Shown: piece by piece, positions 1 to 22,749 of the stretch | Numbering within the stretch: position 1 is the stretch's first letter | Layout: each line of letters begins with the position of its first letter | Source: an uncultured virus (IMG/VR IMGVR_UViG_3300025034_000006) | Lineage: Duplodnaviria; Heunggongvirae; Uroviricota; Caudoviricetes | IMG/VR virus record: IMGVR_UViG_3300025034_000006 | DNA: 46,062 nucleotides | Direction: 5' to 3' (one strand) | Program-made: the position numbers and the translations under genes | Notes under the pieces: generated by a model | Seen by the model: only the letters and a program-made list of their open reading frames with translations | What the model was told of the DNA's origin: nothing | Databases searched by the model: none

Positions 1-97
1 CTAAGTTGTTAACCATCAAAGTGGAAAAACTACTTGACCGAATCACTTGTGCCGCCTAGAAACGAATCACCGCAATCAAGCGGTTGGAGACTTGACC

Positions 98-520
98 ATG
101 CCTAAGTGGCAATACAGTGGCGACCTTGATCTGCGAGAGGGCGGATTCTTCTGGCTGGACAACGGCGATGAAGACTGGGTGGCAGCCGTAAGCGTGACCC
201 CTTGCAGCAGCGCAAGCGGGCCTGACAATCTGTTCTATATCGAGTCGGGCTCGATCTACTTTGCCCGCGATAAGTATGCTGACTATCTGTCAGTGATCGG
301 CATGGAACCGGAAGACGCGACTCGCGAAGACGTGATCTACGCCGCGCACGCCTATGCTGGAATCGAGCGGGACCACGAAACGGTCGTCCGAATTGGTAAG
401 GACGAAAGAGCGTCGGACCCTTGGCGGTGGAACGATTCGGGGTGGAACCCGGAACCCGATGTAGTGCTGCGCGGTAATGCGAGCCTGCAACGTTGGGTTG
501 AACGCGAGTATCTGTCATGA
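98..520 (+). CDS. Hypothetical acidic early protein A (140 aa)
   Basis: GGAGA RBS before ATG 98, downstream of promoter repeat. Confidence 0.8.
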   Translation: MPKWQYSGDLDLREGGFFWLDNGDEDWVAAVSVTPCSSASGPDNLFYIESGSIYFARDKYADYLSVIGMEPEDATREDVIYAAHAYAGIERDHETVVRIGKDERASDPWRWNDSGWNPEPDVVLRGNASLQRWVEREYLS

Positions 521-765
521 ACGCCGATGCAATCGAAGCGGAAGCCGCCGCAATCGCCCAAGCCGTTGCCGAGCGTAAGGCCCGGCCCTATCAGGCCGAT
601 GACAAGGCCCTAGTGGCGGCCTACCTTGCCGCCTCTGGTGTCGCGGGCTCACGCTCTTGGGAGATAACCCCGGAAGCGTTGGACTTGCCCTACCCTGTGT
701 GGGCGGCCATCCGGGCGGCCTACTTCGAAGCCGCGTGCAAGTGGAAGCGGGAGTCCGGCGCATAG
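517..765 (+). CDS. Hypothetical early protein (82 aa)
   Basis: ATGA overlap with upstream gene, followed by hairpin. Confidence 0.75.
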   Translation: MNADAIEAEAAAIAQAVAERKARPYQADDKALVAAYLAASGVAGSRSWEITPEALDLPYPVWAAIRAAYFEAACKWKRESGA

Positions 766-887
766 CCGGGCTCTTTCCCGGTAACCATCCGTTAACCTTA
801 ACAAGTCGTTACCACTAAGTGGAAAAAGTGCTTGACCGAATCGCTTGCGTCACTTAGAAACGAATCAGTTGAAACGGAGACAGACCA

Positions 888-1391
888 ATGCCTGAATTTC
901 AAATGGATAAAGAGGGAACCGTCAATGGGATGGTTTTCGCCGATCTCTCCATGATCTTTCAGGGTTACGTGGAAGCGATGCTTTTCACGGAAAACTCGCC
1001 CGGCAATAGCATGGTCGATTGGCTGGATGATGAAGTGCAGGCAGGCTTGCGGGAAGGCACCATTGACGGCTGCATTCCGGAAGATGCGGGCTGGGGTGAT
1101 ATTCACCCCGAATCGGCTGAGCGGATGCAACTCGATTGCCTTAACTTCGAAGTGCAAGCCCGCGATCTACTGGCGCAAGCCTATGAGCGCGACTATGACG
1201 CGGCGCAAGCGGGCCGGGATTTCTGGTTCACTCGCAACGGTCACGGCGTCGGCTTTTGGGACCGCAAGGAACTGGAAGCGGACGGGCTGGGGGATGCTCT
1301 CACCACCATCGCCGAGTCGTTCGGGCAAGTGTATGTCGATTTCATCGCAGACCCTGAAAGCCCGACCGGTTACGGTTACGTCCACGTCTGA
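888..1391 (+). CDS. Acidic phage hypothetical protein B (motif GRDFWFTRNGHGVGFWDR)
   Basis: RBS, promoter and terminator; motif resembles a recurrent phage hypothetical family (recalled). Confidence 0.85.
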   Translation: MPEFQMDKEGTVNGMVFADLSMIFQGYVEAMLFTENSPGNSMVDWLDDEVQAGLREGTIDGCIPEDAGWGDIHPESAERMQLDCLNFEVQARDLLAQAYERDYDAAQAGRDFWFTRNGHGVGFWDRKELEADGLGDALTTIAESFGQVYVDFIADPESPTGYGYVHV

Positions 1392-1546
1392 GAGGGGAGG
1401 GGCCTTGCGCCCCTCTCTTTTTGTCCGGTAACCTATCGTTAAGGTTAACGTGCCGGCCGATCTTCTTAACCATCAAAGTGGAAAAAGTGCTTGACCGAAT
1501 CACTTGGGTCACCTAGAAACGAATCACTTGAAACGGAGACAAGACC

Positions 1547-2245
1547 ATGAAACTTTTCCCTGATGCCGCCGCCCTCGAATCATCCGGCTATCTTTTCCGG
1601 ATCACTGACAACGGCGGCGAAACCTTTGACAGAATCACCGTCACGTTTTGCGATGGCGACGCGCTCGTTTGCACGCTCGGGACCATTTGCGCCCACGTTG
1701 AACGGGTTGACGTTCAAGTTGACGCAGAAGCCGTCGAATCCGGCGAGGCGCGGGACTTGCGCTGGATTGATCTGGACCCCGGCCTGCAATCGCGCATCCT
1801 TGCCGATCTGAATAACGGCTTTGCGGATTATATCGAAGCCGCGCCCGCAGCCGCGACTCGGGACGAAGCCCGCGACTGGGAAGGGCTATGGGATCACTAC
1901 AGTGATAAACGTTCGCCGATTTATAAGTTGGGGGATTATTATCGCATCCGCGATGATGAGCGCGACAATGAAAACGACGATGACGATGACGCCTTTGAGA
2001 CGCCAGCATTCGCTACGTTCCGGGACGCCTTATTCTACATGTTGCCAACCGACTATGACTTGAGCGGCCCGGAATATCACACCACGGTCGATCTCTGGGA
2101 TACCGAAGGGGGACCGGCTGAACCTTGGGAAAAGGAACAGGATTGCGGTCAATGCGAAGGCACCGGCACAATCGAAGGCGGACCGGGCGGTGATGGGGAG
2201 GATGAGGAATGCCCCGTCTGCGATGGGAAGGGCAAGCAGGGATAA
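1547..2245 (+). CDS. Very acidic protein C with C-terminal DnaJ-type zinc finger
   Basis: CGQCEGTG...CPVCDGKG (CxxCxGxG twice); RBS; terminator. Confidence 0.85.
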   Translation: MKLFPDAAALESSGYLFRITDNGGETFDRITVTFCDGDALVCTLGTICAHVERVDVQVDAEAVESGEARDLRWIDLDPGLQSRILADLNNGFADYIEAAPAAATRDEARDWEGLWDHYSDKRSPIYKLGDYYRIRDDERDNENDDDDDAFETPAFATFRDALFYMLPTDYDLSGPEYHTTVDLWDTEGGPAEPWEKEQDCGQCEGTGTIEGGPGGDGEDEECPVCDGKGKQG

Positions 2246-2404
2246 ACTAGGCGGGCTCCGGCCCGCCTCTTTTCCCGGTAACCCGGCGTTAACCTTAACA
2301 AATCGGACTAAGTTGTTAACCATCAAAGTGGAAAAACTACTTGACCGAATCACTTGTGCCGCCTAGAAACGAATCACCGCAATCAAGCGGTTGGAGACTT
2401 GACC

Positions 2405-2827
2405 ATGCCTAAGTGGCAATACAGTGGCGACCTTGATCTGCGAGAGGGCGGATTCTTCTGGCTGGACAACGGCGATGAAGACTGGGTGGCAGCCGTAAGC
2501 GTGACCCCTTGCAGCAGCGCAAGCGGGCCTGACAATCTGTTCTATATCGAGTCGGGCTCGATCTACTTTGCCCGCGATAAGTATGCTGACTATCTGTCAG
2601 TGATCGGCATGGAACCGGAAGACGCGACTCGCGAAGACGTGATCTACGCCGCGCACGCCTATGCTGGAATCGAGCGGGACCACGAAACGGTCGTCCGAAT
2701 TGGTAAGGACGAAAGAGCGTCGGACCCTTGGCGGTGGAACGATTCGGGGTGGAACCCGGAACCCGATGTAGTGCTGCGCGGTAATGCGAGCCTGCAACGT
2801 TGGGTTGAACGCGAGTATCTGTCATGA
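2405..2827 (+). CDS. Second identical copy of protein A
   Basis: Identical to 98-520. Confidence 0.8.
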   Translation: MPKWQYSGDLDLREGGFFWLDNGDEDWVAAVSVTPCSSASGPDNLFYIESGSIYFARDKYADYLSVIGMEPEDATREDVIYAAHAYAGIERDHETVVRIGKDERASDPWRWNDSGWNPEPDVVLRGNASLQRWVEREYLS

Positions 2828-3072
2828 ACGCCGATGCAATCGAAGCGGAAGCCGCCGCAATCGCCCAAGCCGTTGCCGAGCGTAAGGCCCGGCCCTATCA
2901 GGCCGATGACAAGGCCCTAGTGGCGGCCTACCTTGCCGCCTCTGGTGTCGCGGGCTCACGCTCTTGGGAGATAACCCCGGAAGCGTTGGACTTGCCCTAC
3001 CCTGTGTGGGCGGCCATCCGGGCGGCCTACTTCGAAGCCGCGTGCAAGTGGAAGCGGGAGTCCGGCGCATAG
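2824..3072 (+). CDS. Second identical copy of 82-aa protein
   Basis: Identical to 517-765. Confidence 0.75.
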   Translation: MNADAIEAEAAAIAQAVAERKARPYQADDKALVAAYLAASGVAGSRSWEITPEALDLPYPVWAAIRAAYFEAACKWKRESGA

Positions 3073-3194
3073 CCGGGCTCTTTCCCGGTAACCATCCGTT
3101 AACCTTAACAAGTCGTTACCACTAAGTGGAAAAAGTGCTTGACCGAATCGCTTGCGTCACTTAGAAACGAATCAGTTGAAACGGAGACAGACCA

Positions 3195-3698
3195 ATGCCT
3201 GAATTTCAAATGGATAAAGAGGGAACCGTCAATGGGATGGTTTTCGCCGATCTCTCCATGATCTTTCAGGGTTACGTGGAAGCGATGCTTTTCACGGAAA
3301 ACTCGCCCGGCAATAGCATGGTCGATTGGCTGGATGATGAAGTGCAGGCAGGCTTGCGGGAAGGCACCATTGACGGCTGCATTCCGGAAGATGCGGGCTG
3401 GGGTGATATTCACCCCGAATCGGCTGAGCGGATGCAACTCGATTGCCTTAACTTCGAAGTGCAAGCCCGCGATCTACTGGCGCAAGCCTATGAGCGCGAC
3501 TATGACGCGGCGCAAGCGGGCCGGGATTTCTGGTTCACTCGCAACGGTCACGGCGTCGGCTTTTGGGACCGCAAGGAACTGGAAGCGGACGGGCTGGGGG
3601 ATGCTCTCACCACCATCGCCGAGTCGTTCGGGCAAGTGTATGTCGATTTCATCGCAGACCCTGAAAGCCCGACCGGTTACGGTTACGTCCACGTCTGA
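3195..3698 (+). CDS. Second identical copy of protein B
   Basis: Identical to 888-1391. Confidence 0.85.
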   Translation: MPEFQMDKEGTVNGMVFADLSMIFQGYVEAMLFTENSPGNSMVDWLDDEVQAGLREGTIDGCIPEDAGWGDIHPESAERMQLDCLNFEVQARDLLAQAYERDYDAAQAGRDFWFTRNGHGVGFWDRKELEADGLGDALTTIAESFGQVYVDFIADPESPTGYGYVHV

Positions 3699-3852
3699 GA
3701 GGGGAGGGGCCTTGCGCCCCTCTCTTTTTGTCCGGTAACCTATCGTTAAGGTTAACGTGCCGGCCGATCTTCTTAACCATCAAAGTGGAAAAAGTGCTTG
3801 ACCGAATCACTTGGGTCACCTAGAAACGAATCAGTTGAAACGGAGACAGACC

Positions 3853-4092
3853 ATGCAAACAGCTATTGAACGCCTCAAGGAAGCCGCCAAGGACTCATTC
3901 ATGAAGCCGCAATCCTACATGGGTGCGGACATTCAGGAAGCGATTATGGAAGCCGGGCTCGATCTGGAAGACGACAAGATTTATGCACGCCTCTCGGCTC
4001 CGGGCTATCTCGATTGCACTGATTGGAGCGGTCCCTTCGACACCACGGAAGAGGCCGCACAAGCCTTGCTGGACCTCTACTTCGAAGATTGA
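3853..4092 (+). CDS. Acidic hypothetical protein D (79 aa; YARLSAPGYLDCTDWSGPF)
   Basis: GGAGACAGACC-ATG; terminator after stop. Confidence 0.85.
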   Translation: MQTAIERLKEAAKDSFMKPQSYMGADIQEAIMEAGLDLEDDKIYARLSAPGYLDCTDWSGPFDTTEEAAQALLDLYFED

Positions 4093-4251
4093 GAGTAGGG
4101 GCTTCGGCCCCTCTCTTTTTGCCCGGTAACCAGCCGTTAACCTTAACAGCGTGGTAACTAAGTGGAAAAACTTCTGGACGAATTGGCTTGCGAATCACCT
4201 ACGACTCGCCTATCAAGAGTTCAGCGCAATTCCGCGCTTGGAGACGACCAA

Positions 4252-4701
4252 ATGTCATCACCTTTCCTACCTTCGGTGCAAGAGCAACTACAAGCTCGCC
4301 GCGACGAATCGGACGACGGCTTCGCCTGCGTTCATATCGATACCTGTCTTTCATCCTTTCTGAATGACCACCACAATCGCGATGGCGAATTGCTGCTGGG
4401 CGCAATCGTCTTCGGCGATACTTCCATCGGTGAAGTCAAGAACGAACTGCTGAGCGAGTTCGACTCGGTGGCTTACGATCTGGCTGGTGAGCGTGCTGGC
4501 TATGACCACGACAAGGCTCGGAAAGCGATCCTGCGTGCGTTTGTGGACGTTCATCCCATGGAACTGGACCGGAAAGCTTTCGATCCTTCGCTGGATTTCC
4601 GCGACGAAGAGGACGACGGCTTCGGCTGCGAGGAATACTGTCAAGCGTGGTTCCTCATTACGTGGAACGTTCCGGAAGAGGAGGACGAGACATCGGATTG
4701 A
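4252..4701 (+). CDS. Acidic hypothetical protein (149 aa)
   Basis: GGAGA RBS before ATG 4252. Confidence 0.8.
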   Translation: MSSPFLPSVQEQLQARRDESDDGFACVHIDTCLSSFLNDHHNRDGELLLGAIVFGDTSIGEVKNELLSEFDSVAYDLAGERAGYDHDKARKAILRAFVDVHPMELDRKAFDPSLDFRDEEDDGFGCEEYCQAWFLITWNVPEEEDETSD

Positions 4702-4790
4702 TCGACGCACTCGCCCGCCTAGGTGTGGGCGTCCTCTTCCTTATCCTTGCAACTGGGCTGGCCGCGTGCCAGCCCCTTTTCTTTTGGTAA
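4698..4790 (+). CDS. Putative micro-lipoprotein MIDALARLGVGVLFLILATGLAACQPLFFW
   Basis: TTG overlapping upstream TGA; hydrophobic signal and lipobox LAAC; paralogous to 6543-6656. Confidence 0.55.
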   Translation: MIDALARLGVGVLFLILATGLAACQPLFFW

Positions 4791-4892
4791 CCATTCGTTA
4801 AGGTTAACAACAAGTGGAGTTCGGTGGAAAAAGTTCTTGACCAAATCGCTTGCACCGCCTAGAAACGAATCAGTTGAAACGGAGACAGACCA

Positions 4893-5165
4893 ATGATCAA
4901 AGCAGCAGCAGATTTCAGCCACATCCGCCCGGACGAAGTAGCTGAGTGTTGGGATGGTGTTGACGCCGTTCCCGGCCTTTACAGCGCCCTTTGGGGTTGT
5001 GTGAACGATTACAAGGCCCCGTCGCCGGAAGTATCGGAAGAGCCCTGCCACGGTATGGATTCGGTCGCTGACTTCTGGGATCGGTTCTCGGATGATCACA
5101 AAGAGGCGCTTAACGCCCTCTGCGAACGGCACGCTGAGTTCTGGACCGGCCACGAGGAGTATTGA
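4893..5165 (+). CDS. Acidic hypothetical protein (90 aa)
   Basis: Promoter repeat and RBS. Confidence 0.8.
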   Translation: MIKAAADFSHIRPDEVAECWDGVDAVPGLYSALWGCVNDYKAPSPEVSEEPCHGMDSVADFWDRFSDDHKEALNALCERHAEFWTGHEEY

Positions 5166-5167
5166 AC

Positions 5168-5413
5168 ATGAAGCTATTTTTCGTTGCTCACTTCAACGGC
5201 GAAAACTACGACTTGTTCGTGGTTGCCAACACGGTGGCGGAAGTGACTCAAGTCTGGCGAGACCATTACGAAATGCCGGACGAAACGCCCGAAATGATCT
5301 TCAAGGTAGCTGGCGCGAGCCCGGTCGGATCACGGGAAGAGCCCCATGCCTTCGAATGGCACGGGGTCAATCTCCCACGGGTTGGCGGCTCTCGACCGGC
5401 CAACCCGCGCTGA
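5168..5413 (+). CDS. Hypothetical protein (81 aa)
   Basis: GAGGAG RBS within upstream gene end; terminator follows. Confidence 0.75.
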   Translation: MKLFFVAHFNGENYDLFVVANTVAEVTQVWRDHYEMPDETPEMIFKVAGASPVGSREEPHAFEWHGVNLPRVGGSRPANPR

Positions 5414-5569
5414 GGGGAGGGGCTTTGGCCCCTCTCTTTTTGTCTGTAAAAATTCGTTAAGGTTAACAGCCCGATAACCACTGGAAAAATAAATGGAGAA
5501 AGTGCTTGCGTGAATCGAATCACCGGCCTATTACCGAATCACCGGCACGGAGCCGGAAGGAGAAAGACC

Positions 5570-6016
5570 ATGCAAGACGCCTCACTTTTCAAGCGCCGCG
5601 AAACGACCTTCAACGGCGGCGAATCGACCACTGGGGTTTACATCCCCAAGCAGACCGTCACGATCGGGCGGTGTGTTGATGAAAACGAAGACATCTGGAC
5701 CGTCACAGACGTGAACGGCAAGACCCACCGGGTTGATGGATGCGAGTTGCACCCGCACCCGGAATCCGCGCTGACCAATGTCGAGTTCATGAATCTGGTC
5801 ATGACGTGGTGCAAGACCCCGTTGATGCACGCCTTCATCTTTCAGGCGCTGGATCAATACGCCAAGGCTGTCGTCAAGGCAGACGTGGCGACGCTCGAAA
5901 CCCCGTTCATCGCTGGGGCGGCGTGGCAGGAAACGGCCCGTGAATATATGGGCTTCGCTGTCGCCCGTGAATACGTGGAGAAAGAGCGCCACAAGGAATT
6001 GACTCCGGCCGATTGA
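5570..6016 (+). CDS. Hypothetical protein (148 aa)
   Basis: AAGGAGA RBS before ATG 5570. Confidence 0.8.
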   Translation: MQDASLFKRRETTFNGGESTTGVYIPKQTVTIGRCVDENEDIWTVTDVNGKTHRVDGCELHPHPESALTNVEFMNLVMTWCKTPLMHAFIFQALDQYAKAVVKADVATLETPFIAGAAWQETAREYMGFAVAREYVEKERHKELTPAD

Positions 6017-6186
6017 GCCTTCGGGCTCTCGGCAGAGGGGCAGGGTTTGGTCGCCCTGCCCCTCACCTTTTTCTGGTAGGGACCCGTTAACCTTAACAAA
6101 TAGGGGTGGGTTGTTAATCGTGGAAAAAGTGCTTGACCGAATCAGTGGATAATGGCACCAACGAATCACCACAAAGGAGACAGACC

Positions 6187-6543
6187 ATGCGAATCACTTA
6201 CGAAATTGTGACCCCGGAAAGCGCCGAACAAGGCGACGCCGAAGAACGGGGATTCGTCCTTCCGGCTCGTTTCTTCCATATGAAGGTATCAATCGAACAG
6301 GTCGATGAACTGGATGACTCAGACTTGGAGTGGAGCTTGCGGGACGCTGAACAATACCTAGGCCGTAATGGCATGGAGGATTCCGGTCGCTGGTTTTCCA
6401 CAATTGACCCGGACCGCGATTATCAAACAGGTGCTGAAACCTATGAATCGCTGCACCCGTCGGACAACATCACACCGGCAAGCTACGAACGCCTTGCGCG
6501 TATCTTTTGCTGGGATCGCGACCCTCGACAGTTGCGAAGCTGA
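6187..6543 (+). CDS. Acidic hypothetical protein (118 aa; YEIVTPESAEQGDAEERGF)
   Basis: AAGGAGA RBS before ATG 6187. Confidence 0.85.
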   Translation: MRITYEIVTPESAEQGDAEERGFVLPARFFHMKVSIEQVDELDDSDLEWSLRDAEQYLGRNGMEDSGRWFSTIDPDRDYQTGAETYESLHPSDNITPASYERLARIFCWDRDPRQLRS

Positions 6544-6656
6544 TGGGCTGCCTTGACGCCGTGGCCCGGCTGCTGCTGGGTGTGTTCTTACTGATCATCG
6601 CCGCCGGGGTTGCATCATGCACCCCGGCATTTTTCTTTCTGGTAACGGTTCGTTAA
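6543..6656 (+). CDS. Putative micro-lipoprotein MGCLDAVARLLLGVFLLIIAAGVASCTPAFFFLVTVR
   Basis: TGATG coupling; hydrophobic signal and lipobox-like VASC; paralogous to 4698-4790. Confidence 0.55.
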   Translation: MGCLDAVARLLLGVFLLIIAAGVASCTPAFFFLVTVR

Positions 6657-6764
6657 CCTTAACAGAAGTGTTTCACTTGTTAACCAACTTTGAAGTGGAA
6701 AAAGTGCTTGACCGAAACAGCGAATCACCCTAGACCGGGATCACCAACAACGGAGACAAACCAA

Positions 6765-7163
6765 ATGAGCGAACACGCAATCAGCAATGCACGGGGCTGG
6801 CTCTCGACAATCGTCGGGGCGATGGCCGCGCTGGAAGCCCTGAACGACGGAGCCGAATCGGCTGAGTTCGACGGGGAGACCTTCACCGACCCGGACGACG
6901 TGCAGAACCGGATTCAGGAAATGCCGCTTTCCGTGGAAGTGCGCGACGGATGGCGGGCACCGGGCGGCGAATCGGAGCCGGAAGAGTTCGCGATTCTGCT
7001 CTCGACCGGCGGACCGGCCTTGCGGGTATATGGTGACATCGGCGGCGAACCTTTCTTGCAGTGGCAGGACTGGGGCACGCCGTGGACCACCTACCATGAC
7101 ACCACCGAACAGGAAGACGAGGCCCTGCAAGCCTTTGTCGGAATGTTCTATCTCGGCGAATAA
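6765..7163 (+). CDS. Very acidic hypothetical protein (132 aa; ILLSTGGPALR...WQDWGTPW)
   Basis: RBS, promoter, terminator. Confidence 0.85.
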   Translation: MSEHAISNARGWLSTIVGAMAALEALNDGAESAEFDGETFTDPDDVQNRIQEMPLSVEVRDGWRAPGGESEPEEFAILLSTGGPALRVYGDIGGEPFLQWQDWGTPWTTYHDTTEQEDEALQAFVGMFYLGE

Positions 7164-7332
7164 GGAAAGGCGGGGCAACCCGCCTTTTTCTTTGGGTGTA
7201 AACATTCGTTAAGGTTAACGGAATCGGTCTATCGTGTTAACCATTCTTCAAAGTGGAAAAAGTGCTTGACCGAATCGCTGGAAAATGCGAATCAGGGTTT
7301 ACCGGAAGAGACCGGAAAACAGGAGACAGACC

Positions 7333-7638
7333 ATGAAGACACTTTTTGAAATCCCGACCCGTGGCGATGACATGACCATGCCGGGCGGCATCGCGCTGCG
7401 CTACAACGAAAACCGCGAAGAGTTTGTGGTCCACAACTACAACACCGACCGGGAGACAGGCACCGAACGCAATTACTTTGGTGGCGGCTACTACTGCTCG
7501 GGCACACCGGCGGAACGTCTGAGCGGGGCCATGGCAGACCTCAGCAAGCGGGTTGCACGTCAGAGCAATTACGATCTGGGCGGCTCCATTGATGTGGAAG
7601 CTTTGACCGGACTCCCTGCCCGGCTCTACGCCATCTAA
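7333..7638 (+). CDS. Hypothetical protein (101 aa)
   Basis: AGGAGACAGACC-ATG. Confidence 0.8.
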   Translation: MKTLFEIPTRGDDMTMPGGIALRYNENREEFVVHNYNTDRETGTERNYFGGGYYCSGTPAERLSGAMADLSKRVARQSNYDLGGSIDVEALTGLPARLYAI

Positions 7639-7641
7639 TAC

Positions 7642-7727
7642 CGGGACCCGGCACCCTGAGAACAGGGGCCGGGTTTCCAAACACCGGCGGGACCCGGCCC
7701 ACTGAGAACAAGGGCCGGGTTTCCAAA
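7642..7727 (+). repeat. Two tandem 40-nt hairpin repeats (7642-7681, 7688-7727); related copies at 12681-12742
   Basis: CGGGACCCGGC..CTGAGAACA(G/A)GGGCCGGGTTTCCAAA. Confidence 0.9.
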
Positions 7728-7855
7728 TTGGTAACCAATCGTTAAGGTTAACAAATTGATGAAATGAGTTAACTATTAAAGTGGAAAAAGTGCTTGACCG
7801 AATCGCTGGGAACGGGCAAACGAATCAGGCGCACTCAAGCGCAGGAGACAGACCA

Positions 7856-8143
7856 ATGCCCAAACTTTACAATGCGGACATTAGCATCACCGCGACCGCC
7901 TATGTGATCGCTGAGAACGAAGACGACGCACGGGAAAAGATTAGCGCCCTTCAAGGGGACTACATCGAATTTTCCGACCGCCGCCAGCAAGTGGCAGACG
8001 ACCTGTTCGTGACCGGCGAAACCTATGGCCCTGATATGCCGAAACTGTCGCTGAGCCCTGCTATGACCATCAACCACAGCGCGACTCGCCCCTATGTCTG
8101 TCTGGTGCAGGAACTGACCGGCGAAGAAGAGGATGTAGGATGA
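7856..8143 (+). CDS. Acidic hypothetical protein (95 aa)
   Basis: AGGAGA RBS before ATG 7856. Confidence 0.8.
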   Translation: MPKLYNADISITATAYVIAENEDDAREKISALQGDYIEFSDRRQQVADDLFVTGETYGPDMPKLSLSPAMTINHSATRPYVCLVQELTGEEEDVG

Positions 8144-8415
8144 TGCACGAAGCCAATCAATCCCGGATCGACTGGGCAAAGAACGCCCTCGATACCTTCA
8201 CCATCGAAACCTATGGCGGACGGCCTTACTCGACGCTTGAAGCGCAATGCGCCGACTGCGAAGAAGGTGAGGGTGACGACTACACGGCCATCCAAGACCT
8301 TATCGGTGATTTGCTCCATGTGGCCCACGAAAGAGGCTGGAACACAGCCGAACTAATCCGGCGGGCGGAAGCCAACTTCGTCTATGAAGCTGCACCGGAC
8401 TATCAAGGCGACTAA
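8140..8415 (+). CDS. Acidic hypothetical protein (91 aa; IQDLIGDLLHVA)
   Basis: ATGA overlap; terminator follows. Confidence 0.8.
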   Translation: MMHEANQSRIDWAKNALDTFTIETYGGRPYSTLEAQCADCEEGEGDDYTAIQDLIGDLLHVAHERGWNTAELIRRAEANFVYEAAPDYQGD

Positions 8416-8750
8416 GGGAGAGGGGCTTCGGCCCCTCTTTGCTTTTTGGTCGTTTTGGATCACCGCCGCTTTGGATCGACGCGACTTTGGATCGCCCCGG
8501 TTTTGGGTTTGGATCATTTCGATTTTCATGATCGCCGCCATTTTGCAGGAGCCCGGACCGACCGACCGAACCAGCCGACCGAGCCCCACGCTCCCCACCA
8601 GCAGATGGTTAACGAAACTGACCAATCTGTTAAGGTTAACGCCGGCGGCCGAATCCGTTAAGGAATATGGTTAACAGATTGGCTGATTTTGTTAACCATC
8701 AAAGTGGAAATAGTGCTTGACCGAATCAGCGAATCGGTCCATACCCGAAT

Positions 8751-8837
8751 GGTAAATGGTTGGACAGCCAGATCAAGGAACTGGATTGCGATTGGGGCGA
8801 CCCTGTTTCACCTGAATGCGAATCGCATCTCTATTGA
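8751..8837 (+). pseudogene. 5'-truncated cassette gene remnant (GKWLDSQIKELDCDWGDPVSPECESHLY*) or 25-aa peptide from TTG 8760
   Basis: Full promoter upstream and terminator downstream, but no RBS or in-frame ATG. Confidence 0.45.
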
Positions 8838-9004
8838 GGGAGCGGGCTTCGGCCCGCCTCTTGGCTGGTAACGGTTTGTTAAGGTTAACGGTCGGCCGGG
8901 ATTTGTTAACCATCAAAGTGAAAAGTAAGTGGAAAAACTGCTTGACCGAATCGGCTTAGACTGGCACTAACGAATCACCGCAATCAAGCGGACGGAGAAA
9001 GACT

Positions 9005-9091
9005 ATGAGCCGACACCAGAAACGCCGCCTTGCCGCCAAGCGTGCGCGCATCGCCATTCTTTCCTCGTGGATCGCAAAGGGCCGCCGCTAA
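9005..9091 (+). CDS. Arg-rich 28-aa peptide MSRHQKRRLAAKRARIAILSSWIAKGRR
   Basis: GGAGA RBS; TAATG coupling to next gene. Confidence 0.7.
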   Translation: MSRHQKRRLAAKRARIAILSSWIAKGRR

Positions 9092-9357
9092 TGGCTGGCT
9101 TCTGGGATCGCGTGGACACCCTCGAAATGGTGGAACTCTACGCCGAGGACAACGGCCAGATTGCCAGCGAAGAGGAGCTTTCCAAGCGCTTTGACGAAGA
9201 AGTGCTTCCCGATGTGATCGCACACTACGGCGAAAACGATTCGGTTGCTATCAATGAAGAATTTAGCAACTGGTCGGACATGCTGTGTAAGGACGGCGAA
9301 ATTCACCCGGAACAATACAATTCGTATTGCTACGTTGGAAAGCTGGCAGACGACTAA
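9091..9357 (+). CDS. Very acidic hypothetical protein (88 aa; NWSDMLCKDGEI)
   Basis: Coupled start; hairpin after stop. Confidence 0.8.
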   Translation: MAGFWDRVDTLEMVELYAEDNGQIASEEELSKRFDEEVLPDVIAHYGENDSVAINEEFSNWSDMLCKDGEIHPEQYNSYCYVGKLADD

Positions 9358-9468
9358 GGCGAGGGGCTTAGGTCCCTCACCAAACTTTTTTTTTGTAATT
9401 AGTGGAAAAAGTGCTTGACCGAATCGGTTGGTTCGCCTAGAAACGAATCAACAGCAACGGAGGCAGTC

Positions 9469-9573
9469 ATGCAGATCAACACCTACCACGTTTACATCAA
9501 CAACACCTTTTCCGGGATCATCTCGGCGGTGTCTTACCGGCAAGCGCGCCAGCGCGCTAAGGCCAAGGTTTGA
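9469..9573 (+). CDS. 34-aa peptide MQINTYHVYINNTFSGIISAVSYRQARQRAKAKV
   Basis: Own promoter, GGAGG RBS and terminator; similar to N-terminus of 14031-14303. Confidence 0.75.
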   Translation: MQINTYHVYINNTFSGIISAVSYRQARQRAKAKV

Positions 9574-9735
9574 GGGGAGGGGCTTCGGCCCCTCTTTCTT
9601 TTTGCCCGGTGAAATTTGTTAACCTTAACGAATATGGTTAACAAATTGACGTTTGGGGTTAACTATCAAAGTGGAAAAAGTGCTTGACCGAATCGGTGAC
9701 TCGTGCGAAAACGAATCATCAATCGGAGACAGATC

Positions 9736-9867
9736 ATGCAAAACATCCGCAAGAATCCCATTGCCGCCTCGCTCGCCAGCGCTCACCTCGCCCCTCGCAA
9801 GGTTCGCGCTCGTAAAGGCAAGGGCTCTTTCCGCCGCAACCCCAAGCATCGGGGAGTGGCGGCATGA
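9736..9867 (+). CDS. arfA: ArfA-like (alternative ribosome-rescue factor A) peptide, 43 aa
   Basis: MQNIRKNPIAASLASAHLAPRKVRARKGKGSFRRNPKHRGVAA matches the ArfA pattern N.I.A.L....F..R....KKGKGSY.R..KH; RBS GGAGA; below ORF-track cutoff. Confidence 0.7.
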   Translation: MQNIRKNPIAASLASAHLAPRKVRARKGKGSFRRNPKHRGVAA

Positions 9868-10046
9868 GCCGCGCTCGCAACACCCTCGACTCCCGCTATA
9901 GCGTGCGCCTCGAATGGTGCGGACGTGCGACGCAGCAATGGGTTGCCCGCTTCTGTGGTGATTGGCTCGGATGCGACTCGACCCGCTCGGGCGCTGAGGA
10001 AATCGCCCGTCTGTATGAGCGCGACCGCTGGAGCATGGCAGCATGA
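9864..10046 (+). CDS. Hypothetical protein (60 aa)
   Basis: ATGA overlaps at both ends, GGAG RBS. Confidence 0.75.
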   Translation: MSRARNTLDSRYSVRLEWCGRATQQWVARFCGDWLGCDSTRSGAEEIARLYERDRWSMAA

Positions 10047-10387
10047 GCGACCGCATCCGCCCCGTGACTTTCGACTCGGCCCAGATCGAGCCCTTTGCTG
10101 CTCGCATCATCGGCATAGCCGCTTCGCAATTCTGTCGCCTCAAAGAGCGCGAGAAAGAGACCGGAGAGAAGTCGGACCCCTTCGACATGGAAGATGCTCT
10201 TATGCATCTCTGGTGGGCTCTCAAGGGGCTTGATCACATTGCAATAGCGTTACGCGGCGGCAGGGACTGCGACGACGTGTCAGGCGTTCATTTTTCCATG
10301 GTGATGAATGCGGAACACAGCAGGATTCGCCGCCTCATCATGGAAGAACTTGGAGTCGATCCCGGATCGCATCCGCGCTGGAAATGA
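10043..10387 (+). CDS. Hypothetical protein (114 aa)
   Basis: ATGA overlap; terminator follows. Confidence 0.75.
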   Translation: MSDRIRPVTFDSAQIEPFAARIIGIAASQFCRLKEREKETGEKSDPFDMEDALMHLWWALKGLDHIAIALRGGRDCDDVSGVHFSMVMNAEHSRIRRLIMEELGVDPGSHPRWK

Positions 10388-10594
10388 GGGGCTTCGGCCC
10401 CTCTCTTTTTGCCCGGTAACCCCACGTTAAGGTTAACCGATCGGGCGAAGTTGTTAACCATCAAAGTGAAATTGAAGTGGAAAAAGTTCTTGCACGAATC
10501 AGCGAATCGCCCTAGACCCGAATCACCGGGCGGCACCTACTGACTGGCAGAGCAGCAGCAAGGCTCGCCCGGTAACTCACACAGGAGACAGGCT

Positions 10595-10756
10595 ATGTTC
10601 GAAGTCAAGACCACCCTGCGGACCTACAAGGTCGAAGCCAATCACATCAACGCCGCTTTCATCGCCGCAAACGTGCTGGCAGTGGAAGGCGAAGAAATCC
10701 TTTCCGTGGCCTATGCTGGGCCCGTCACGTTCATCATCGTGGAGATCGCGGCATGA
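10595..10756 (+). CDS. Hypothetical protein (53 aa, MFEVKTTLRTYKVEA...VEIAA)
   Basis: AGGAGA RBS; ATGA coupling to next gene. Confidence 0.7.
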   Translation: MFEVKTTLRTYKVEANHINAAFIAANVLAVEGEEILSVAYAGPVTFIIVEIAA

Positions 10757-10971
10757 TCAGCAAGAAAGATGCCATCGCCAAGGCAATCGCGGCTGGAGCC
10801 TCGGAGGAGGAAATTGATCGCCAAGCCGCAAACTACGTCCGCCAAGTCGGCACCGTGCCTTTCAACAACATGATTCGGGCTCTCAACATCGGCCCTTGGC
10901 ACAACACCGTTGACGACTGGACTCGGCTGGCAGCAGCCCTGACCGCGAGGGGATTGGCGCGAAAGCGCTAA
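10753..10971 (+). CDS. Hypothetical protein (72 aa)
   Basis: GGAGA RBS, coupled start. Confidence 0.75.
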   Translation: MISKKDAIAKAIAAGASEEEIDRQAANYVRQVGTVPFNNMIRALNIGPWHNTVDDWTRLAAALTARGLARKR

Positions 10972-11091
10972 TTCCTTAACGGAATTGATGAATTTGTTAA
11001 GGTTAACGCGAATTAAGAATAAAGTGGAAAAAGTGCTTGACCGAATCAGTTAACCATCCTAGAAACGAATCAACAGCAACGGAGACACACA

Positions 11092-11304
11092 ATGAAGATC
11101 AAGATCAAGACCACCGCTCGCTACACCGCAAAGCGCAAAGCCGCCATCATCGCCGATGTGGACAACGGCACCACCACCCTCGAAGACGTTTGCAGCCTGC
11201 ACAACATCACAAGCGAAGAGTTTGCTGGCTGGCGTAAGTCGCTGGATCGCTCGGGACAGCAGGGGCTTCGGATCACTCGCCTGCAACACTACCGGGCAGC
11301 ATAA
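11092..11304 (+). CDS. sciP: SciP/DUF1153-family CtrA-inhibitor homologue (70 aa)
   Basis: RYTAKRKAAII...G...LEDVC....TSEEFAGWRKSLDRSGQQGLRITRLQHYR aligns without gaps to the SciP core RWVIRRKAEVV...G...L.EAC..Y.LT.EEF.SWQ..IDRHG..GLR.TRIQ.YR (recalled). Confidence 0.88.
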   Translation: MKIKIKTTARYTAKRKAAIIADVDNGTTTLEDVCSLHNITSEEFAGWRKSLDRSGQQGLRITRLQHYRAA

Positions 11305-11454
11305 GGGGAGGGGCTTCGGCCCCTTTTCTTTTGGCCTTAACCCAGTGTTAAGGTTAACAGATCAGCCGAATTAGTTAACCAATTAGCTGGAAAAAGTGCT
11401 TGACCGAATCAGCGAATCACCTTAGACCCGAATCACAAACAACGGAGACAGACC

Positions 11455-11697
11455 ATGCGTTTTCTTTCTGCAACCCTTATGGCCCTCGGCCTTTTAGCTG
11501 GTTATGGTGCTTTCTACATGACAGCGAACATTGACCTAACCCCGCTCGCCCCTGAGGCCCGGACCGTCACCCAGATGCTCTTTAACGCCCTTGCTATGTG
11601 CGGGCTTTGCCTGCCCGCCTTGTCGATGCTAGCGCTGCACGACGACGCAAACTTGCGCCGCCAGTATCCCCACCGCTATCGCAAGAATCGCCGCTAA
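11455..11697 (+). CDS. Small membrane protein (80 aa, two hydrophobic segments)
   Basis: Promoter repeat and RBS; hydrophobic stretches with basic tail. Confidence 0.75.
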   Translation: MRFLSATLMALGLLAGYGAFYMTANIDLTPLAPEARTVTQMLFNALAMCGLCLPALSMLALHDDANLRRQYPHRYRKNRR

Positions 11698-11861
11698 TGG
11701 AAACGCTGGCAGAATATCGCCACAAGCGCGACCGGGCAATCGTTCAACGCCGCATGGGCGAAGAGCGCCGCCGCCACGTCAATCAATGCGTGGCTGACAT
11801 CATCGCACAAGGTAAGATGGAAGAGCGCCGCCAGACCATCCGCCGGGAGGAAGATCAATGA
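11697..11861 (+). CDS. Arg/Glu-rich helical peptide (54 aa, METLAEYRHKRD...)
   Basis: TAATG and ATGA couplings. Confidence 0.65.
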   Translation: METLAEYRHKRDRAIVQRRMGEERRRHVNQCVADIIAQGKMEERRQTIRREEDQ

Positions 11862-12058
11862 CAGACCGCCGATTCGTTATCGTGGAAAACGCCGGATATG
11901 AAGGCGAAAAAGACATCACCCACTTTCTCACCTTGCGGGAGGCATTCGCCTATCAGCGCGGCCATTATGAGCCGGACGAGATCGAAGAATTGCACGTCGA
12001 TATTCGCCAAGACTGGACGGACGAAAACGGCGATTTTCATCAGGAATATGTCTATTAG
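11858..12058 (+). CDS. Acidic hypothetical protein (66 aa)
   Basis: GGAGG RBS, coupled start. Confidence 0.75.
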   Translation: MTDRRFVIVENAGYEGEKDITHFLTLREAFAYQRGHYEPDEIEELHVDIRQDWTDENGDFHQEYVY

Positions 12059-12125
12059 GTGGAAAAAGTGCTTGACCGAATCGATGGACTATGCGAAAAC
12101 GAATCATCGAAACGGAGACAAGCAA

Positions 12126-12320
12126 ATGACCACCATCCTGATCCTCGCAATCGCCTTCCTGATCACCGCCACCGTGGCAATCATCAAGGCCCGCGCCGAA
12201 CTCGCCGCTCACGCCGCCGAACAGGCAAGCAAGCATATCCCCAACCCAACCGAATACACCGGCCCGCGCTTCACCGCACATGGCCGGGAAATCCAACAGA
12301 CCGGACGCCGGATCATCTGA
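12126..12320 (+). CDS. N-terminally membrane-anchored protein (64 aa)
   Basis: GGAGA RBS; MTTILILAIAFLITATVAII; terminator. Confidence 0.75.
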   Translation: MTTILILAIAFLITATVAIIKARAELAAHAAEQASKHIPNPTEYTGPRFTAHGREIQQTGRRII

Positions 12321-12476
12321 GAAAGGGGCGGGAGAAATCCCGCCCTTTTCTTTGTCTGGTAACCGGGTGTTAAGGTTAACAAAACGGTTAAATTCGTTAA
12401 CCATCAAAGTGGAAAAAATGCTTGACCGAATCGGCTGGTATGTTTAGACCCGAATCACTGGAAACGGAGACAGACC

Positions 12477-12674
12477 ATGAGCAATTCCACCGAACAAGCA
12501 ATGGCCGCCGACCTCGACCTTTGCGACATGATCCTTGCATTCGGAACGCCTGCCGCCAAGCGCAAGGCCCGCGCCCACCGCAAGGCTTGTTTCGCAGAAA
12601 TCGCCCGGATGAACGCCGAGTCTGGGACTGACAAGCTGAGCGATGATGAATTACTCGCCGAATTGATGGCCTGA
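12477..12674 (+). CDS. Hypothetical protein (65 aa)
   Basis: Promoter repeat and RBS. Confidence 0.8.
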   Translation: MSNSTEQAMAADLDLCDMILAFGTPAAKRKARAHRKACFAEIARMNAESGTDKLSDDELLAELMA

Positions 12675-12862
12675 CAGGAACCGGCCCCTGACAACAGGGG
12701 CCGGGACCCTAATTCACTGAGAAAAGGGGCCGGGCTCCAAAATCGTAAATTCAGGTTAACCTTAACCGATCGGCCGAAATCGTTAACCATCAAAGTGGAA
12801 AAAGTGCTTGACCGAATCGGCTGGCGCGTTTAGACCCGAATCACTGGAAACGGAGCCAGACC

Positions 12863-13138
12863 ATGGAAAGATTCGAACTGACAGGCTCGGGCATCAGCGA
12901 CGGGCAGAATCCGGAAAAACTGCTTGCCGCCGCGAAAAAGTGCGGCCTTCACAATCCCCGACTCGCCTATCACTTCGGCTGGTCGAATCAGCCGAAAACG
13001 ATTCGTTTCAGCGCTGAAAGCTGGGAAGCTGCCGATAAGGTCGCCGATCTGGTGCGAACCGAATTTTACCCGGAAAATGCCGAGGGCCGTTTGTGCCCGA
13101 TGATTCGGGCCTATCCGGTGAAAGCCCCGGAAGCCTGA
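12863..13138 (+). CDS. Hypothetical protein (91 aa)
   Basis: Promoter repeat, RBS, terminator. Confidence 0.8.
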   Translation: MERFELTGSGISDGQNPEKLLAAAKKCGLHNPRLAYHFGWSNQPKTIRFSAESWEAADKVADLVRTEFYPENAEGRLCPMIRAYPVKAPEA

Positions 13139-13311
13139 TCCCGGAAAAGCCCGATTCGCCGAATCGGGCTTTTTCTTTGGCGGTAATCTCTGGTTAACCT
13201 TAATAAAACGGCGAAATTCGTTAACCCTAAAAATCGGGATTTTCTGGAAAAAGTGCTTGACCGAATCGGCCTTTTCTGGAAAAACCGAATCACCGCAAAC
13301 GGAGAAATGAC

Positions 13312-13467
13312 ATGATCACCATGGAAGCGATTATCGGGGGCCTTATTTCGGGGTTCGCTGTGCGCCTCTATGGTGCAGGACTGGCGCTCTATGTGGGCCT
13401 GTGTGCGAGCGACCTTATCAGCAGCACCCTTGCCAGCGCCACGGCTACCCTAGACACCCTACCCTAA
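13312..13467 (+). CDS. Hydrophobic 51-aa peptide (MITMEAIIGGLISGFAVRLYGAGLALYVGLC...)
   Basis: GGAGA RBS after last promoter repeat. Confidence 0.65.
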   Translation: MITMEAIIGGLISGFAVRLYGAGLALYVGLCASDLISSTLASATATLDTLP

Positions 13468-13536: not shown

Positions 13537-13662
13537 GTATGCGTGCGTGTGCGCGTGCGTGCGTGTGCGCCTGTGCGTGCGCCTGTGCGGGCGCGTGCGC
13601 CTGCGGGTGTGCGCGCCTGCGTGTGTGTGTGCATGTGTGCGCGTGCCTGCCTAGGCGCGCAC
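13537..13662. repeat. Alternating purine-pyrimidine (GT/GC) low-complexity tract
   Basis: Uninterrupted RY alternation at 13537-13570 and 13618-13646. Confidence 0.9.
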
Positions 13663-14896: not shown

Positions 14897-15718
14897 TTGG
14901 ACCCAATACCCGTGGCCCACAAGAAGAAGCAGATTTTCTTTCCCACCGATCCTGTTCACGTCGCCGAGAAGGTCGCAGCCAGCCGGCAGCCGCCCAAGCC
15001 GGTCCCAGTCCTGAAAGCGCAGACCCCCGGTCAGAAAGGTTACATCCGCAAGCTTACCCAGAACCACCACGACATTCTTTTCGCCGTCGGCCCGGCCGGC
15101 ACCGGTAAGACCTACGCCGCTGTTCTCGATGCCATCATCAAGTTCCGCCGAGGCGATTGCACCAAGATCATCATCACGCGTCCCATGGTCGGTGCTGGTG
15201 GTGAAGAGCTTGGCACTCTGCCGGGCGGCGTGATGGAGAAGGTGGCACCATGGTGCATCCCGCTCCTCGACATCTTCAAGGAGTTCTATACCAAGTATGA
15301 GGTCGAGCAGATGCTGGACCGCGAGGAGATCGAAATCGCTCCCCTTGCCATCATGCGTGGCCGCACCTTGAAGAACGCGATCGTGATCGCCGACGAAGCC
15401 CAGAACTGCACGATCGAGCAGATGAAGATGCTGATGACGCGTATCGGCTCGGGCTCGCGGATGGTCATCACGGGCGACATCGAACAGCACGACCGACCGC
15501 ACGGCCAGTCGGGTCTCGCCGACGTGATCCGCCGGATCGAGGAAAAGGAAGCACGGACGCGTTTCGAGGCGGCCATTCCCGGATCGATCGTTGCGAGTGA
15601 TGAGGACGAAGAGACGCCCCGGCTGCGTCACAGCCGCATCGGCGTCGTGCGTCTTGGTCGCAAGGACATTGTGCGTCACGAGGTGATCGATGACGTTCTG
15701 AGCCTCTACGAGGAGTAA
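14897..15718 (+). CDS. phoH: PhoH-family ATPase
   Basis: GPAGTGKT, MRGRTLKNAIVIADEAQN, TRIGSGSRMVITGDIEQHD motifs; start codon uncertain. Confidence 0.95.
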   Translation: MDPIPVAHKKKQIFFPTDPVHVAEKVAASRQPPKPVPVLKAQTPGQKGYIRKLTQNHHDILFAVGPAGTGKTYAAVLDAIIKFRRGDCTKIIITRPMVGAGGEELGTLPGGVMEKVAPWCIPLLDIFKEFYTKYEVEQMLDREEIEIAPLAIMRGRTLKNAIVIADEAQNCTIEQMKMLMTRIGSGSRMVITGDIEQHDRPHGQSGLADVIRRIEEKEARTRFEAAIPGSIVASDEDEETPRLRHSRIGVVRLGRKDIVRHEVIDDVLSLYEE

Positions 15719-16610: not shown

Positions 16611-17135
16611 ATGGAAACCTTCTTCATCCTTCTCGGGCAAGCTGTCGTCGGCTGGATCATCGCTGATCTGCTGGGCGGTTTTGTTCATTGGTATCTCGAT
16701 AGGGTTGCCCGGCCGCGCTGGGATTGGCTGGAGAAGTCAGTCTGGGCCCCGAACCGGGTTCACCACGCTGACCCGCTGGCGTTCACCGCTCATGGTTTCT
16801 TCAACCGCAACTCGACGACCTTTGTGGCGGCCAGTGTAGCCGCCGGTTTGTGGCTCTTGGCGTTCGGACCGTCTGTTGTTCTCCTGTTTGCCTACGCCGG
16901 TGGGATGTTGCAGAACGAGGTCCACTACTGGACTCACAAGAAGTCCACCGGTTGGATCAAGGTCATTCAACAAACTGGTGTCATCCAGTCTATCCCAACA
17001 CATGCCCGGCACCACAAACCACCCCAGAACCGGAACTACTGCATCCTGACTGAATGGTGCAACCCGGTGCTGGAGCGTCTGGATGTATGGAACCGGTTGG
17101 AGCGCCGCTTCGGAATCACCGACATTATTACTTGA
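16611..17135 (+). CDS. CarF/TMEM189(PEDS1)/FAD4-type lipid desaturase-domain protein
   Basis: ADLLGGFVHWYLD, HHADP, NEVHYWTH, HARHH..P....YCILTEWCNPVLE histidine boxes. Confidence 0.85.
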   Translation: METFFILLGQAVVGWIIADLLGGFVHWYLDRVARPRWDWLEKSVWAPNRVHHADPLAFTAHGFFNRNSTTFVAASVAAGLWLLAFGPSVVLLFAYAGGMLQNEVHYWTHKKSTGWIKVIQQTGVIQSIPTHARHHKPPQNRNYCILTEWCNPVLERLDVWNRLERRFGITDIIT

Positions 17136-22184: not shown

Positions 22185-22667
22185 ATGCAGAACCCGAACA
22201 CCGTGACGGTCTACAGCCCTGAGGGCGAACCGTTCGAAATGAGCCGTGTGAACGCACGCGACCTTTGCAGCCACCGTGGCTGGTCGATGTCGCCGCTGAC
22301 TGTTCCGCCGGTCAAGGCTGAAAAGCCCGCTGAGATCAAGACCGAAACACCGGTCGAAACCAAGGAAGAAACCCATGCCGAAGCTGACAGCGAAGGAAGC
22401 GGGCAAGCTGATGCCACCGGTGAAACCGAAGATGGCGAAGGCGAAGGGACAGAAGGCAGCACCAGCGGCGAAACGCCGGGATCGGAACAAGAAGATGTAT
22501 TGACCGATCCGGTCATCTTCACAACCGAAGAGCAGTTCGCTGGAATGACCGATCGTGAAGATGTGGTGGTCTATCTGGCAGGCGCTTTCCCTGACTTCAA
22601 GCCCCACCACAAGGCAGGTCGCGACGGCCTCGTTGCCAAGGCAATCGAACTCGCAACGGGCGAATAA
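22185..22667 (+). CDS. Hypothetical protein with acidic low-complexity linker
   Basis: AGGAG RBS. Confidence 0.75.
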   Translation: MQNPNTVTVYSPEGEPFEMSRVNARDLCSHRGWSMSPLTVPPVKAEKPAEIKTETPVETKEETHAEADSEGSGQADATGETEDGEGEGTEGSTSGETPGSEQEDVLTDPVIFTTEEQFAGMTDREDVVVYLAGAFPDFKPHHKAGRDGLVAKAIELATGE

Positions 22668-22696
22668 TCAACAATCAATACCGCTAAGGCGGCTCC

Positions 22697-22736
22697 GGGC
22701 TTGGCAGGCAATTAGCTTGCCAAGCCCTTTCCTTTT
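22697..22736 (+). terminator. Intrinsic terminator
   Basis: GGGCTTGGCAGGC-AATTA-GCTTGCCAAGCCC-TTTCCTTTT. Confidence 0.8.
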
Positions 22737-22749
22737 CAAGGACTTTCTC

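Follow-up and report, generated by a model that had tools for sequence, protein, structure and literature searches.

In Alphaproteobacteria, CtrA is the master regulator of the cell cycle and of motility, and the locus described here raises the question whether a phage of these bacteria encodes its own form of the CtrA inhibitor SciP and what such a protein might do for the phage. The open reading frame concerned lies on the plus strand of a 46,062-nt sequence from an uncultured virus (IMG/VR record IMGVR_UViG_3300025034_000006), and this whole stretch is referred to below as the window. The frame occupies positions 11092–11304, encodes 70 amino acids and was present as given in a preliminary description made from the same sequence.

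The phage and its genome

The window represents a CbK-like siphophage of Sphingomonadales that is related to Erythrobacter phage XM05, and the host of the phage is to be sought among Sphingomonas/Erythrobacter-type bacteria. Nucleotide matches of the window were patchy and restricted to two Erythrobacter phages, XM05 and vB_EliS-L02, the latter with a CbK-like siphovirus morphology (PMC9127768, in excerpt). The remainder of the window encodes PhoH, a lipid desaturase, a portal-type protein, the major capsid protein, the tail tube, the tape measure and a GTA-like distal tail module. A 96.8-kb IMG/VR record shared 96% of the window's sampled words and carried the same SciP-like gene, and near-identical DNA was present in many aquifer metagenome runs.

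Several other features of this genome were observed. The PhoH-like ATPase gene and the gene of the lipid desaturase/fatty-acid hydroxylase type (14897–15718 and 16611–17135) are situated between an array of repeated promoters and the structural module, and an HNH endonuclease ORF (22555–23175) lies inside the head module. Two paralogous tail proteins of ~1190 aa (34698–38297 and 38767–42315) each combine Phage-tail_3 with Rcc01698_C, a domain of the GTA host-specificity type, and behind them comes a third large protein, which is cut off by the window's end. An imperfect GC-rich tandem repeat (13540–13646, period 12–22, ~70% matches) occupies a stretch without a convincing gene.

A minimal member of the SciP/DUF1153 family

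The 70-aa protein matched Pfam DUF1153 (PF06627) with an E-value of 6.5e-20 and 71.5 bits, above the gathering threshold of 23.5 bits. Residues 6–68 aligned with positions 25–87 of the 87-position profile, 63 residues on 63 positions and gapless, and the first ~24 profile positions had no counterpart in the phage protein. These results bear out the preliminary description, which had presented the product as a phage-encoded SciP/DUF1153 homologue that aligns without gaps and lacks the N-terminal part. The narrower identification as SciP held for the domain family and not at the equivalog level: the NCBIfam model ‘CtrA inhibitor SciP’ (NF051866) returned 67.7 bits over profile positions 28–90 of 90 only, below its cut-off of 100 bits. 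No corresponding family was found in PHROGs.

Structural comparison gave a consistent picture. A profile built from the protein and its eight close relatives (68–70 aa) matched the PDB entries 2jrt (E 2.3e-11) and 2oa4 (E 3.1e-10) over residues 6–67. The AF2 model of the phage protein (pLDDT 77.8) has main helices at residues 13–24, 30–37 and 41–54 and a short C-terminal helix, arranged as a helix-turn-helix, and its top Foldseek match was again 2jrt (probability 0.98, E 0.13, TMq 0.63). The protein is basic, with a pI of 10.0.

A passenger without any role, either a host gene that was captured and is decaying or what remains of an IS-derived HTH, has some points in its favour: the relatives carry the JGI name ‘transposase-like protein’, and weak NCBIfam matches to IS3 and IS66 families were obtained (E 0.003–0.01). 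We nevertheless regard this as highly improbable. The DUF1153 score is far above that of the IS3-type HTH_Tnp_1, to which Pfam reported a secondary match (29 bits; cut-off 24.1), and none of the 25 scanned small ORFs of the surrounding array, flanking ones included, gave a match to any Pfam family at E ≤ 0.001, transposases included, so that a transposase partner was not found among them. The gene is conserved across four related phage records, with promoter, ribosome-binding site and terminator intact in relatives, and it evolves under purifying selection, with pairwise dN/dS values of 0.03–0.39 in all six pairs compared with three relatives (L007–L009). The ORF is a genuine gene of the phage that purifying selection maintains, and its product is a minimal, arm-less member of the SciP/DUF1153 family.

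Retained arginines and lost arms

The preliminary description had singled out two arginines, R10 and R15, as the counterparts of R35 and R40 in Caulobacter SciP. Both are retained, and both fall in columns that are at least 90% conserved among 24 family members. The two arginine columns (R32 and R37 in host numbering) were invariant among 28 diverse full-length homologues, as were, among others, P26 and W33; at these host-invariant sites the phage protein has R10 and R15 for the arginines, a tyrosine for W33 and nothing for P26. In Caulobacter SciP, the conserved R35 and R40 lie outside the HTH and are critical for the SciP–CtrA interaction (bioRxiv 10.1101/335265, in excerpt). The proposed correspondence with R10 and R15 would fit, judged by the five-residue spacing and the arginine conservation and not by a direct alignment of the Caulobacter protein. 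The XM05 homologue has an isoleucine at the position of R15.

A profile search of 1.84 billion representatives returned 2902 proteins at E ≤ 0.001, of which 612 reached E ≤ 1e-10. For host SciP, one genome per species was scanned with a 7-sequence alignment as query, and 587 of the 600 candidate stretches were confirmed. Among these 587 cellular matches, the top 80 shared 46–54% identity with the phage protein, and 75 of the 80 were titled Sphingomonadales. All 80 host sequences represent a ~99-aa protein with an N-terminal arm (GPLGEPLT..LPPP.TTRW) and a C-terminal tail (LYERQQKY). Both the ~29-residue arm and the tail are absent from the phage protein and its eight close relatives; the loss of the tail goes beyond the preliminary description. 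In the AF2 model of host SciP, the arm is ordered (pLDDT 86–87, with short strands) and the tail forms a helix, and since the phage protein has neither, a function of host SciP may be lost.

The combination of retained putative CtrA-contact arginines and two lost arms, which are conserved in the hosts, also suggests a decoy. Here the arm-less core would sit on CtrA in the place of SciP and leave recruitment of RNA polymerase unblocked, and CtrA-activated transcription, that of CtrA-dependent phage promoters included, would be shielded from host SciP. The position of the phage clade on long branches away from the full-length forms is compatible with such an anti-SciP. It presupposes a putative repressing function of the arms, and we consider it distinctly improbable.

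Distribution of the gene among phages

Among 50,697 GenBank phage records, XM05 was the sole match, whether the phage protein or host SciP was the query. Its homologue (XM05_97) has 65 aa and is 58% identical over residues 23–70. In IMG/VR, a DUF1153 homologue was found on seven contigs of the same phage group and on five more distant ones; the nearest record gave a DUF1153 score of 69.7 bits. One of these, a 69-kb IMG/VR contig (L104), encodes a DUF1153 protein of 88 aa that retains part of the N-terminal arm (5001–5177), located 2.8 kb from a T4-type large terminase, and a second, unrelated viral lineage may thus carry a SciP-like gene. Full-length SciP-like genes on four IMG/VR contigs (L100–L103) were not counted as phage genes: they lie at contig ends beside AlpA, a methylase and LuxR and may belong to host or island flanks.

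Short forms were also found among the profile matches, with 11 of the best 150 having at most 75 aa; the eight that were checked for context all lay on contigs of 0.7–4 kb, which offered no informative surroundings. A tree calculated from 51 sequences over 93 columns set 12 phage-type and four short forms weakly apart from the full-length forms (branch 82/80); 31 of its 48 inner branches were open, and there were long-branch warnings. The phage clade sat on long branches away from all full-length forms, and no donor or origin of the phage gene could be named from this tree. Other cell-cycle regulators were searched for in the four related records, and a phage-encoded GcrA (PF07750), an OmpR/CtrA-type DNA-binding domain and a CcrM-type methylase (N6_N4_Mtase, PF01555) were each found in none of the four.

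The literature that we searched, with subscription journals and supplements outside its scope, held no paper on a phage-encoded SciP, and a search for DUF1153 returned no paper. Two Erythrobacter phage papers that were searched for the terms did not mention SciP, CtrA or GcrA. In the excerpted text of a study on CtrA sites in phages (PMC9437464), SciP occurs five times, only with respect to host sites or in references and without a phage-encoded homologue, and Erythrobacter does not occur.

Gene anatomy and transcription signals

The SciP-like gene has a promoter repeat in front and a terminator behind, and its neighbours are small ORFans, each with its own promoter. The ribosome-binding site GGAGAC (11081–11086, plus strand) ends 5 nt before the ATG, its GGAG (11081–11084) being 7 nt from it, and an identical GGAGAC precedes most ORFs of the array. 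Upstream lies a promoter-like repeat unit (11024–11072), one of 21 copies that are all on the plus strand. It consists of the A-rich GTGGAAAAAGTGC, a -35 element TTGACC (11037–11042), a 17-nt spacer (11043–11059) and a -10-like TAGAAA (11060–11065), and it contains two GANTC sites, both GAATC (11043–11047 and 11067–11071). As the preliminary description had reported, a CtrA/SciP-type word is located in the spacer of this promoter: the spacer contains GTTAACCAT, with TTAACCAT at 11050–11057, and the extended form GTTAACCATC (11049–11058, plus strand) matches a CtrA half-site and the SciP ChIP-seq word (PMC4083442, in excerpt). Further upstream, a GTTAAGGTTAAC doublet (10996–11007, plus strand) provides TTAA-type half-sites; doublets of this type, in either orientation, occur upstream of most array promoters.

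The stop codon TAA (11302–11304) is directly followed by a terminator-like hairpin with a GGGGC-UUCG-GCCCC core and then UUUUCUUUU (11303–11333, plus strand). The hairpin, with a predicted energy of -20.4 kcal/mol (z -2.27) and a U-run behind it, had not been part of the preliminary description. A scan of positions 10500–11800 for E. coli-type consensus signals called neither a promoter nor a terminator. It misses the promoter because the -10 hexamer ends in A; we call the element a promoter because it recurs 21 times before ORFs, on one strand only. Taken together, the promoter repeat, ribosome-binding site and terminator suggest that the gene is transcribed as a unit of its own within an array of host-RNA-polymerase-type promoters.

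Two aquifer metatranscriptome runs each yielded one 100%-identical contig from the array (12128–12325 and 10534–10709), although these are contigs only and DNA carry-over is possible; neither run had a contig over the SciP-like gene. Two wastewater ‘RNA-Seq’ runs probably represent DNA of related phages.

An additional observation concerns the 5' leader of the gene at 10595–10756. A 32-nt stretch of this leader (10533–10564) is 100% identical in vB_EliS-L02 (L108, 1501–1532) and forms the inner part of a hairpin in both phages, in which the outer stems differ in sequence and still pair. The hairpins have energies of -26.5 and -24.8 and z-scores of -2.7 and -3.1 in the window and vB_EliS-L02, respectively, and match no Rfam family; indeed, no Rfam family matched anywhere in the window. 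The stretch may be a conserved leader RNA element.

A promoter array carrying a CtrA/SciP-type word

Positions 1–13330 on the plus strand hold an array, with the SciP-like gene as one unit, in which every small ORFan gene is preceded by its copy of the promoter repeat. The 21 promoter copies in the window comprise 18 distinct ones after removal of an exact duplication. This duplication, a 1526-bp direct repeat (1–1526 and 2308–3833, spacing 2307) that doubles three promoter–gene units, reflects either a genuine tandem duplication or an artefact that the repeated promoters or a terminal repeat caused during assembly. The units share the design GTGGAAAAAGTGC-TTGACC-GAATC...ACGAATCA...GGAGAC, and most of them contain two GANTC sites and a copy of TTAACCAT, usually 25 nt upstream of the -35 element. 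Most units also have a GTTAAGGTTAAC/GTTAACCTTAAC doublet, which puts TTAAC exactly 21 nt further upstream of TTAACCAT. Similar arrays were found in a complete related genome of 176.5 kb (G005, 72.0–94.5 kb) and in XM05 (78.5–96.0 kb), and the design is thus conserved between phages that share almost no other DNA.

The word is strongly enriched. There were 15 occurrences of TTAACCAT in the window against 0.57 expected, a number reached in none of 100 shuffles, and 14 of the 15 fell within the first 13.5 kb; two pairs of them belong to the exact 1526-bp duplication. Its position is also constrained, as seen when offsets are counted from the first base of the -35 hexamer. In the window, nine of 21 promoters had an exact copy at most 45 nt upstream of the -35 element, with the word (≤1 mismatch) at offset -25 in ten and at -35/-36 in two; the respective numbers were 19, 16 and 3 for the 34 promoters of G005, and 17, 9 and 6 for the 26 promoters of XM05. 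Compared with the modal -25 class, the -35/-36 class is displaced away from the promoter by about one more helical turn. TTAAC was located exactly 21 nt upstream of the word in 7/8 cases in the window, 17/19 in G005 and 13/17 in XM05, and two GANTC sites per promoter were present in 16/20, 27/34 and 21/26, respectively. The promoter copies are related by descent, and all these counts are therefore of non-independent events.

Only the promoter of the SciP-like gene has TTAACCAT in the -35/-10 spacer (1/21 in the window, 1/34 in G005). The spacer word is conserved in seven relatives (L003–L009), down to 86% protein identity; the counterpart promoter in XM05 lacks it, and the XM05 gene follows another ORF in an operon. 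A word inside the gene's own spacer occupies the classic position of an autorepressor site, and this brings up a phage repressor or timer that is independent of CtrA. Its HTH would bind DNA directly, at TTAACCAT or at another operator in the repeat unit, and would shut down or tune the early array together with its own gene, the link to the host cell-cycle circuit being one of ancestry only. The HTH fold, the pI of 10.0, the secondary match to the DNA-binding IS3-type HTH_Tnp_1 (29 bits) and the loss of the host-conserved arms agree with this, as does one published view that SciP binds DNA on its own (PMC4083442, in excerpt). That view is disputed, the question being whether SciP contacts DNA itself or only CtrA (same source, in excerpt). 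The phage protein has, moreover, kept the arginines tied to CtrA contact, and vB_EliS-L02 runs a similar array without the gene. On balance, we hold such a timer to be unlikely, with an appreciable chance left to it.

The array of vB_EliS-L02 (OL955261.1, 135.4–147.6 kb, near the right end) consists of 14 copies of a variant promoter, TGCTTGAC-GAATC, that is one base shorter; GTTAAGGTTAAC and GTTAACCAC lie upstream in the one copy read. No DUF1153 gene was found in this phage despite the array, which can therefore run without a SciP-like protein.

The resemblance of the word to known sites has its limits. The motif (G/A)TTAACCAT(A/G) was derived from the top SciP ChIP-seq sites of Caulobacter and has one half of a CtrA box within it (Fumeaux et al. 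2014, PMC4083442, in excerpt). In the array, TTAACCAT is usually followed by C or T instead of A or G, and the full CtrA box TTAA-N7-TTAAC is absent from both strands of the window. In three Sphingomonadales genomes, GTTAACCAT was barely above control (8, 5 and 11 against 3, 7 and 6), and upstream of 78 host sciP genes TTAA-N7-TTAA was found in none and TTAACCAT in one. A different word was seen in five of the eight Sphingomonadales sciP upstream regions that were printed out (L010–L016): it resembles TTTACC-N7-TTTCAG and lies ~60–120 nt upstream, where a CtrA box might be expected.

A proposed role at CtrA-dependent promoters

We hypothesize that the phage protein acts as SciP does, on CtrA-dependent promoters of both host and phage, a reading to which we give somewhat less than an even chance. 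It builds on what was observed, namely the homology, the fold class, the arginines, the loss of both arms, the selection, the gene anatomy and the enrichment, position and conservation of the motif across diverged phages; from these we infer that the protein would bind CtrA or DNA and repress promoters, what its targets would be and when it would act. In such a mechanism, the phage protein would associate with the host response regulator CtrA at half-sites of the TTAACCAT type and change the output of CtrA-dependent promoters, probably by silencing them. One set of targets would be the CtrA-activated genes of the host. The other would be the phage's own array, where the word recurs in the promoters at a set distance and in helical phase, and the copy in its own spacer would subject the SciP-like gene to negative autoregulation.

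A CtrA orthologue above the NCBIfam cut-off was present in each of three host-type genomes. A complex prediction for the phage protein and an Erythrobacteraceae CtrA scored 0.01 (mark 0.32) in a calculation made without control runs, a result that we weigh in neither direction. Against the SciP-like role we count the equivalog score below cut-off, the missing arms, the change of W33 to tyrosine, the isoleucine at R15 and the spacer without the word in XM05, the array without the gene in vB_EliS-L02, the lack of a full CtrA box and the scarcity of GTTAACCAT and TTAACCAT in the host clade. In addition, the TTAACCAT ChIP-seq motif was obtained in Caulobacter, outside the host clade.

The preliminary description had proposed a special case of this role, in which the protein silences pilus and flagellum genes, leading to receptor shut-off and superinfection exclusion, or blocks division, at a level set by a ClpXP degron at its -AA end. 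The targets named there have a basis in the literature: in Caulobacter, SciP-bound promoters include those of flagellar, pilus-secretion and chemotaxis genes (PMC4083442, in excerpt), pili- and flagellotropic phages of Alphaproteobacteria exploit CtrA (PMC9437464, in excerpt), and the relative vB_EliS-L02 is of CbK-like morphology (PMC9127768, in excerpt). The degron found no support. The phage protein does end in -AA, but the ending is not conserved, with AA in only two of nine close relatives, NA in five, TA in one and NV in one, and host SciP is described as a substrate of Lon that wild-type ClpXP degrades poorly (bioRxiv 10.1101/2021.08.18.456811, in excerpt). As a whole, we find this version improbable.

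The SciP-like role can be extended to a self-contained module for hijacking CtrA, in which the phage's arm-less SciP would join two to three dozen early promoters equipped with CtrA/SciP half-site operators in helical phase. We put this forward tentatively and think it rather unlikely in this complete form. If true, the phage and not the host cell cycle would time the firing of CtrA-bound promoters, the host would be locked in a SciP-on state and the phage's own early programme would be closed. The protein would then also count as the first homologue of a CtrA antagonist from a virus, and as a control element for ‘lytic deferment’ that the phage itself encodes. No other recognisable protein would so far have tied a phage of this kind to the CtrA circuit. 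For the question how viruses read or override their host's cell cycle, a phage-made SciP provides tangible starting points: the protein of 70 aa with its two arginines, the defined DNA word and XM05, a cultured relative that grows on Erythrobacter sp. JL475.

Comparison with known systems

Among helix-turn-helix proteins, the N-terminal HTH of the IS3-family transposase OrfA (HTH_Tnp_1) is related to the phage protein, with a score far below that of DUF1153. The closest solved structures are the NMR models of two DUF1153 proteins, 2jrt (Rhodobacter sphaeroides RHOS4_12090) and 2oa4 (SiR5), which match the phage protein in sequence, 2jrt also being its top Foldseek match; they differ in length (95 and 101 aa) by some 30 extra N-terminal residues, and no function was assigned to them by the depositors.

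CbK-type phages carry GcrA-like and CcrM-like genes of cell-cycle regulators. The idea is the same in these cases, a phage copy of a regulator of the host cell cycle, and the protein family is a different one.

The array resembles the clusters of CtrA sites described in connection with ‘lytic deferment’ (Mascolo et al. 2022, PMC9437464, in excerpt). According to that text, sites that occur in clusters in CbK-like phages and in other phages of Alphaproteobacteria are bound and regulated by CtrA, repeats with GTTAACCAT in them are found in Sphingomonas phage MMDA13, and no function could be assigned to any of the genes behind the phage CtrA sites. In both systems, intergenic CtrA-type sites are dense in a block of small genes of unknown function. 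Unlike in the clusters of the excerpted text, one gene of the block described here encodes a SciP homologue, and the sites are half-site words at fixed promoter positions instead of full boxes.

The nearest counterpart remains SciP itself (PF06627; NF051866). The phage protein shares its domain family, its gapless HTH core, both invariant arginines, its small size and its basic character, and the promoter of the phage gene carries a word of the CtrA/SciP type. It differs from SciP in being encoded by a virus, in its length of 70 instead of ~99 aa without the N-terminal arm and the C-terminal tail, in an identity of ~50% to the nearest host proteins, in a score below the equivalog cut-off and in the replacement of RW by RY. 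Such a natural arm-less form amounts to a deletion experiment on SciP, and it shows which part survives when only the needs of a phage count. Within this known regulator family, the gene is a variant that is carried by a phage, has been truncated and has diverged.
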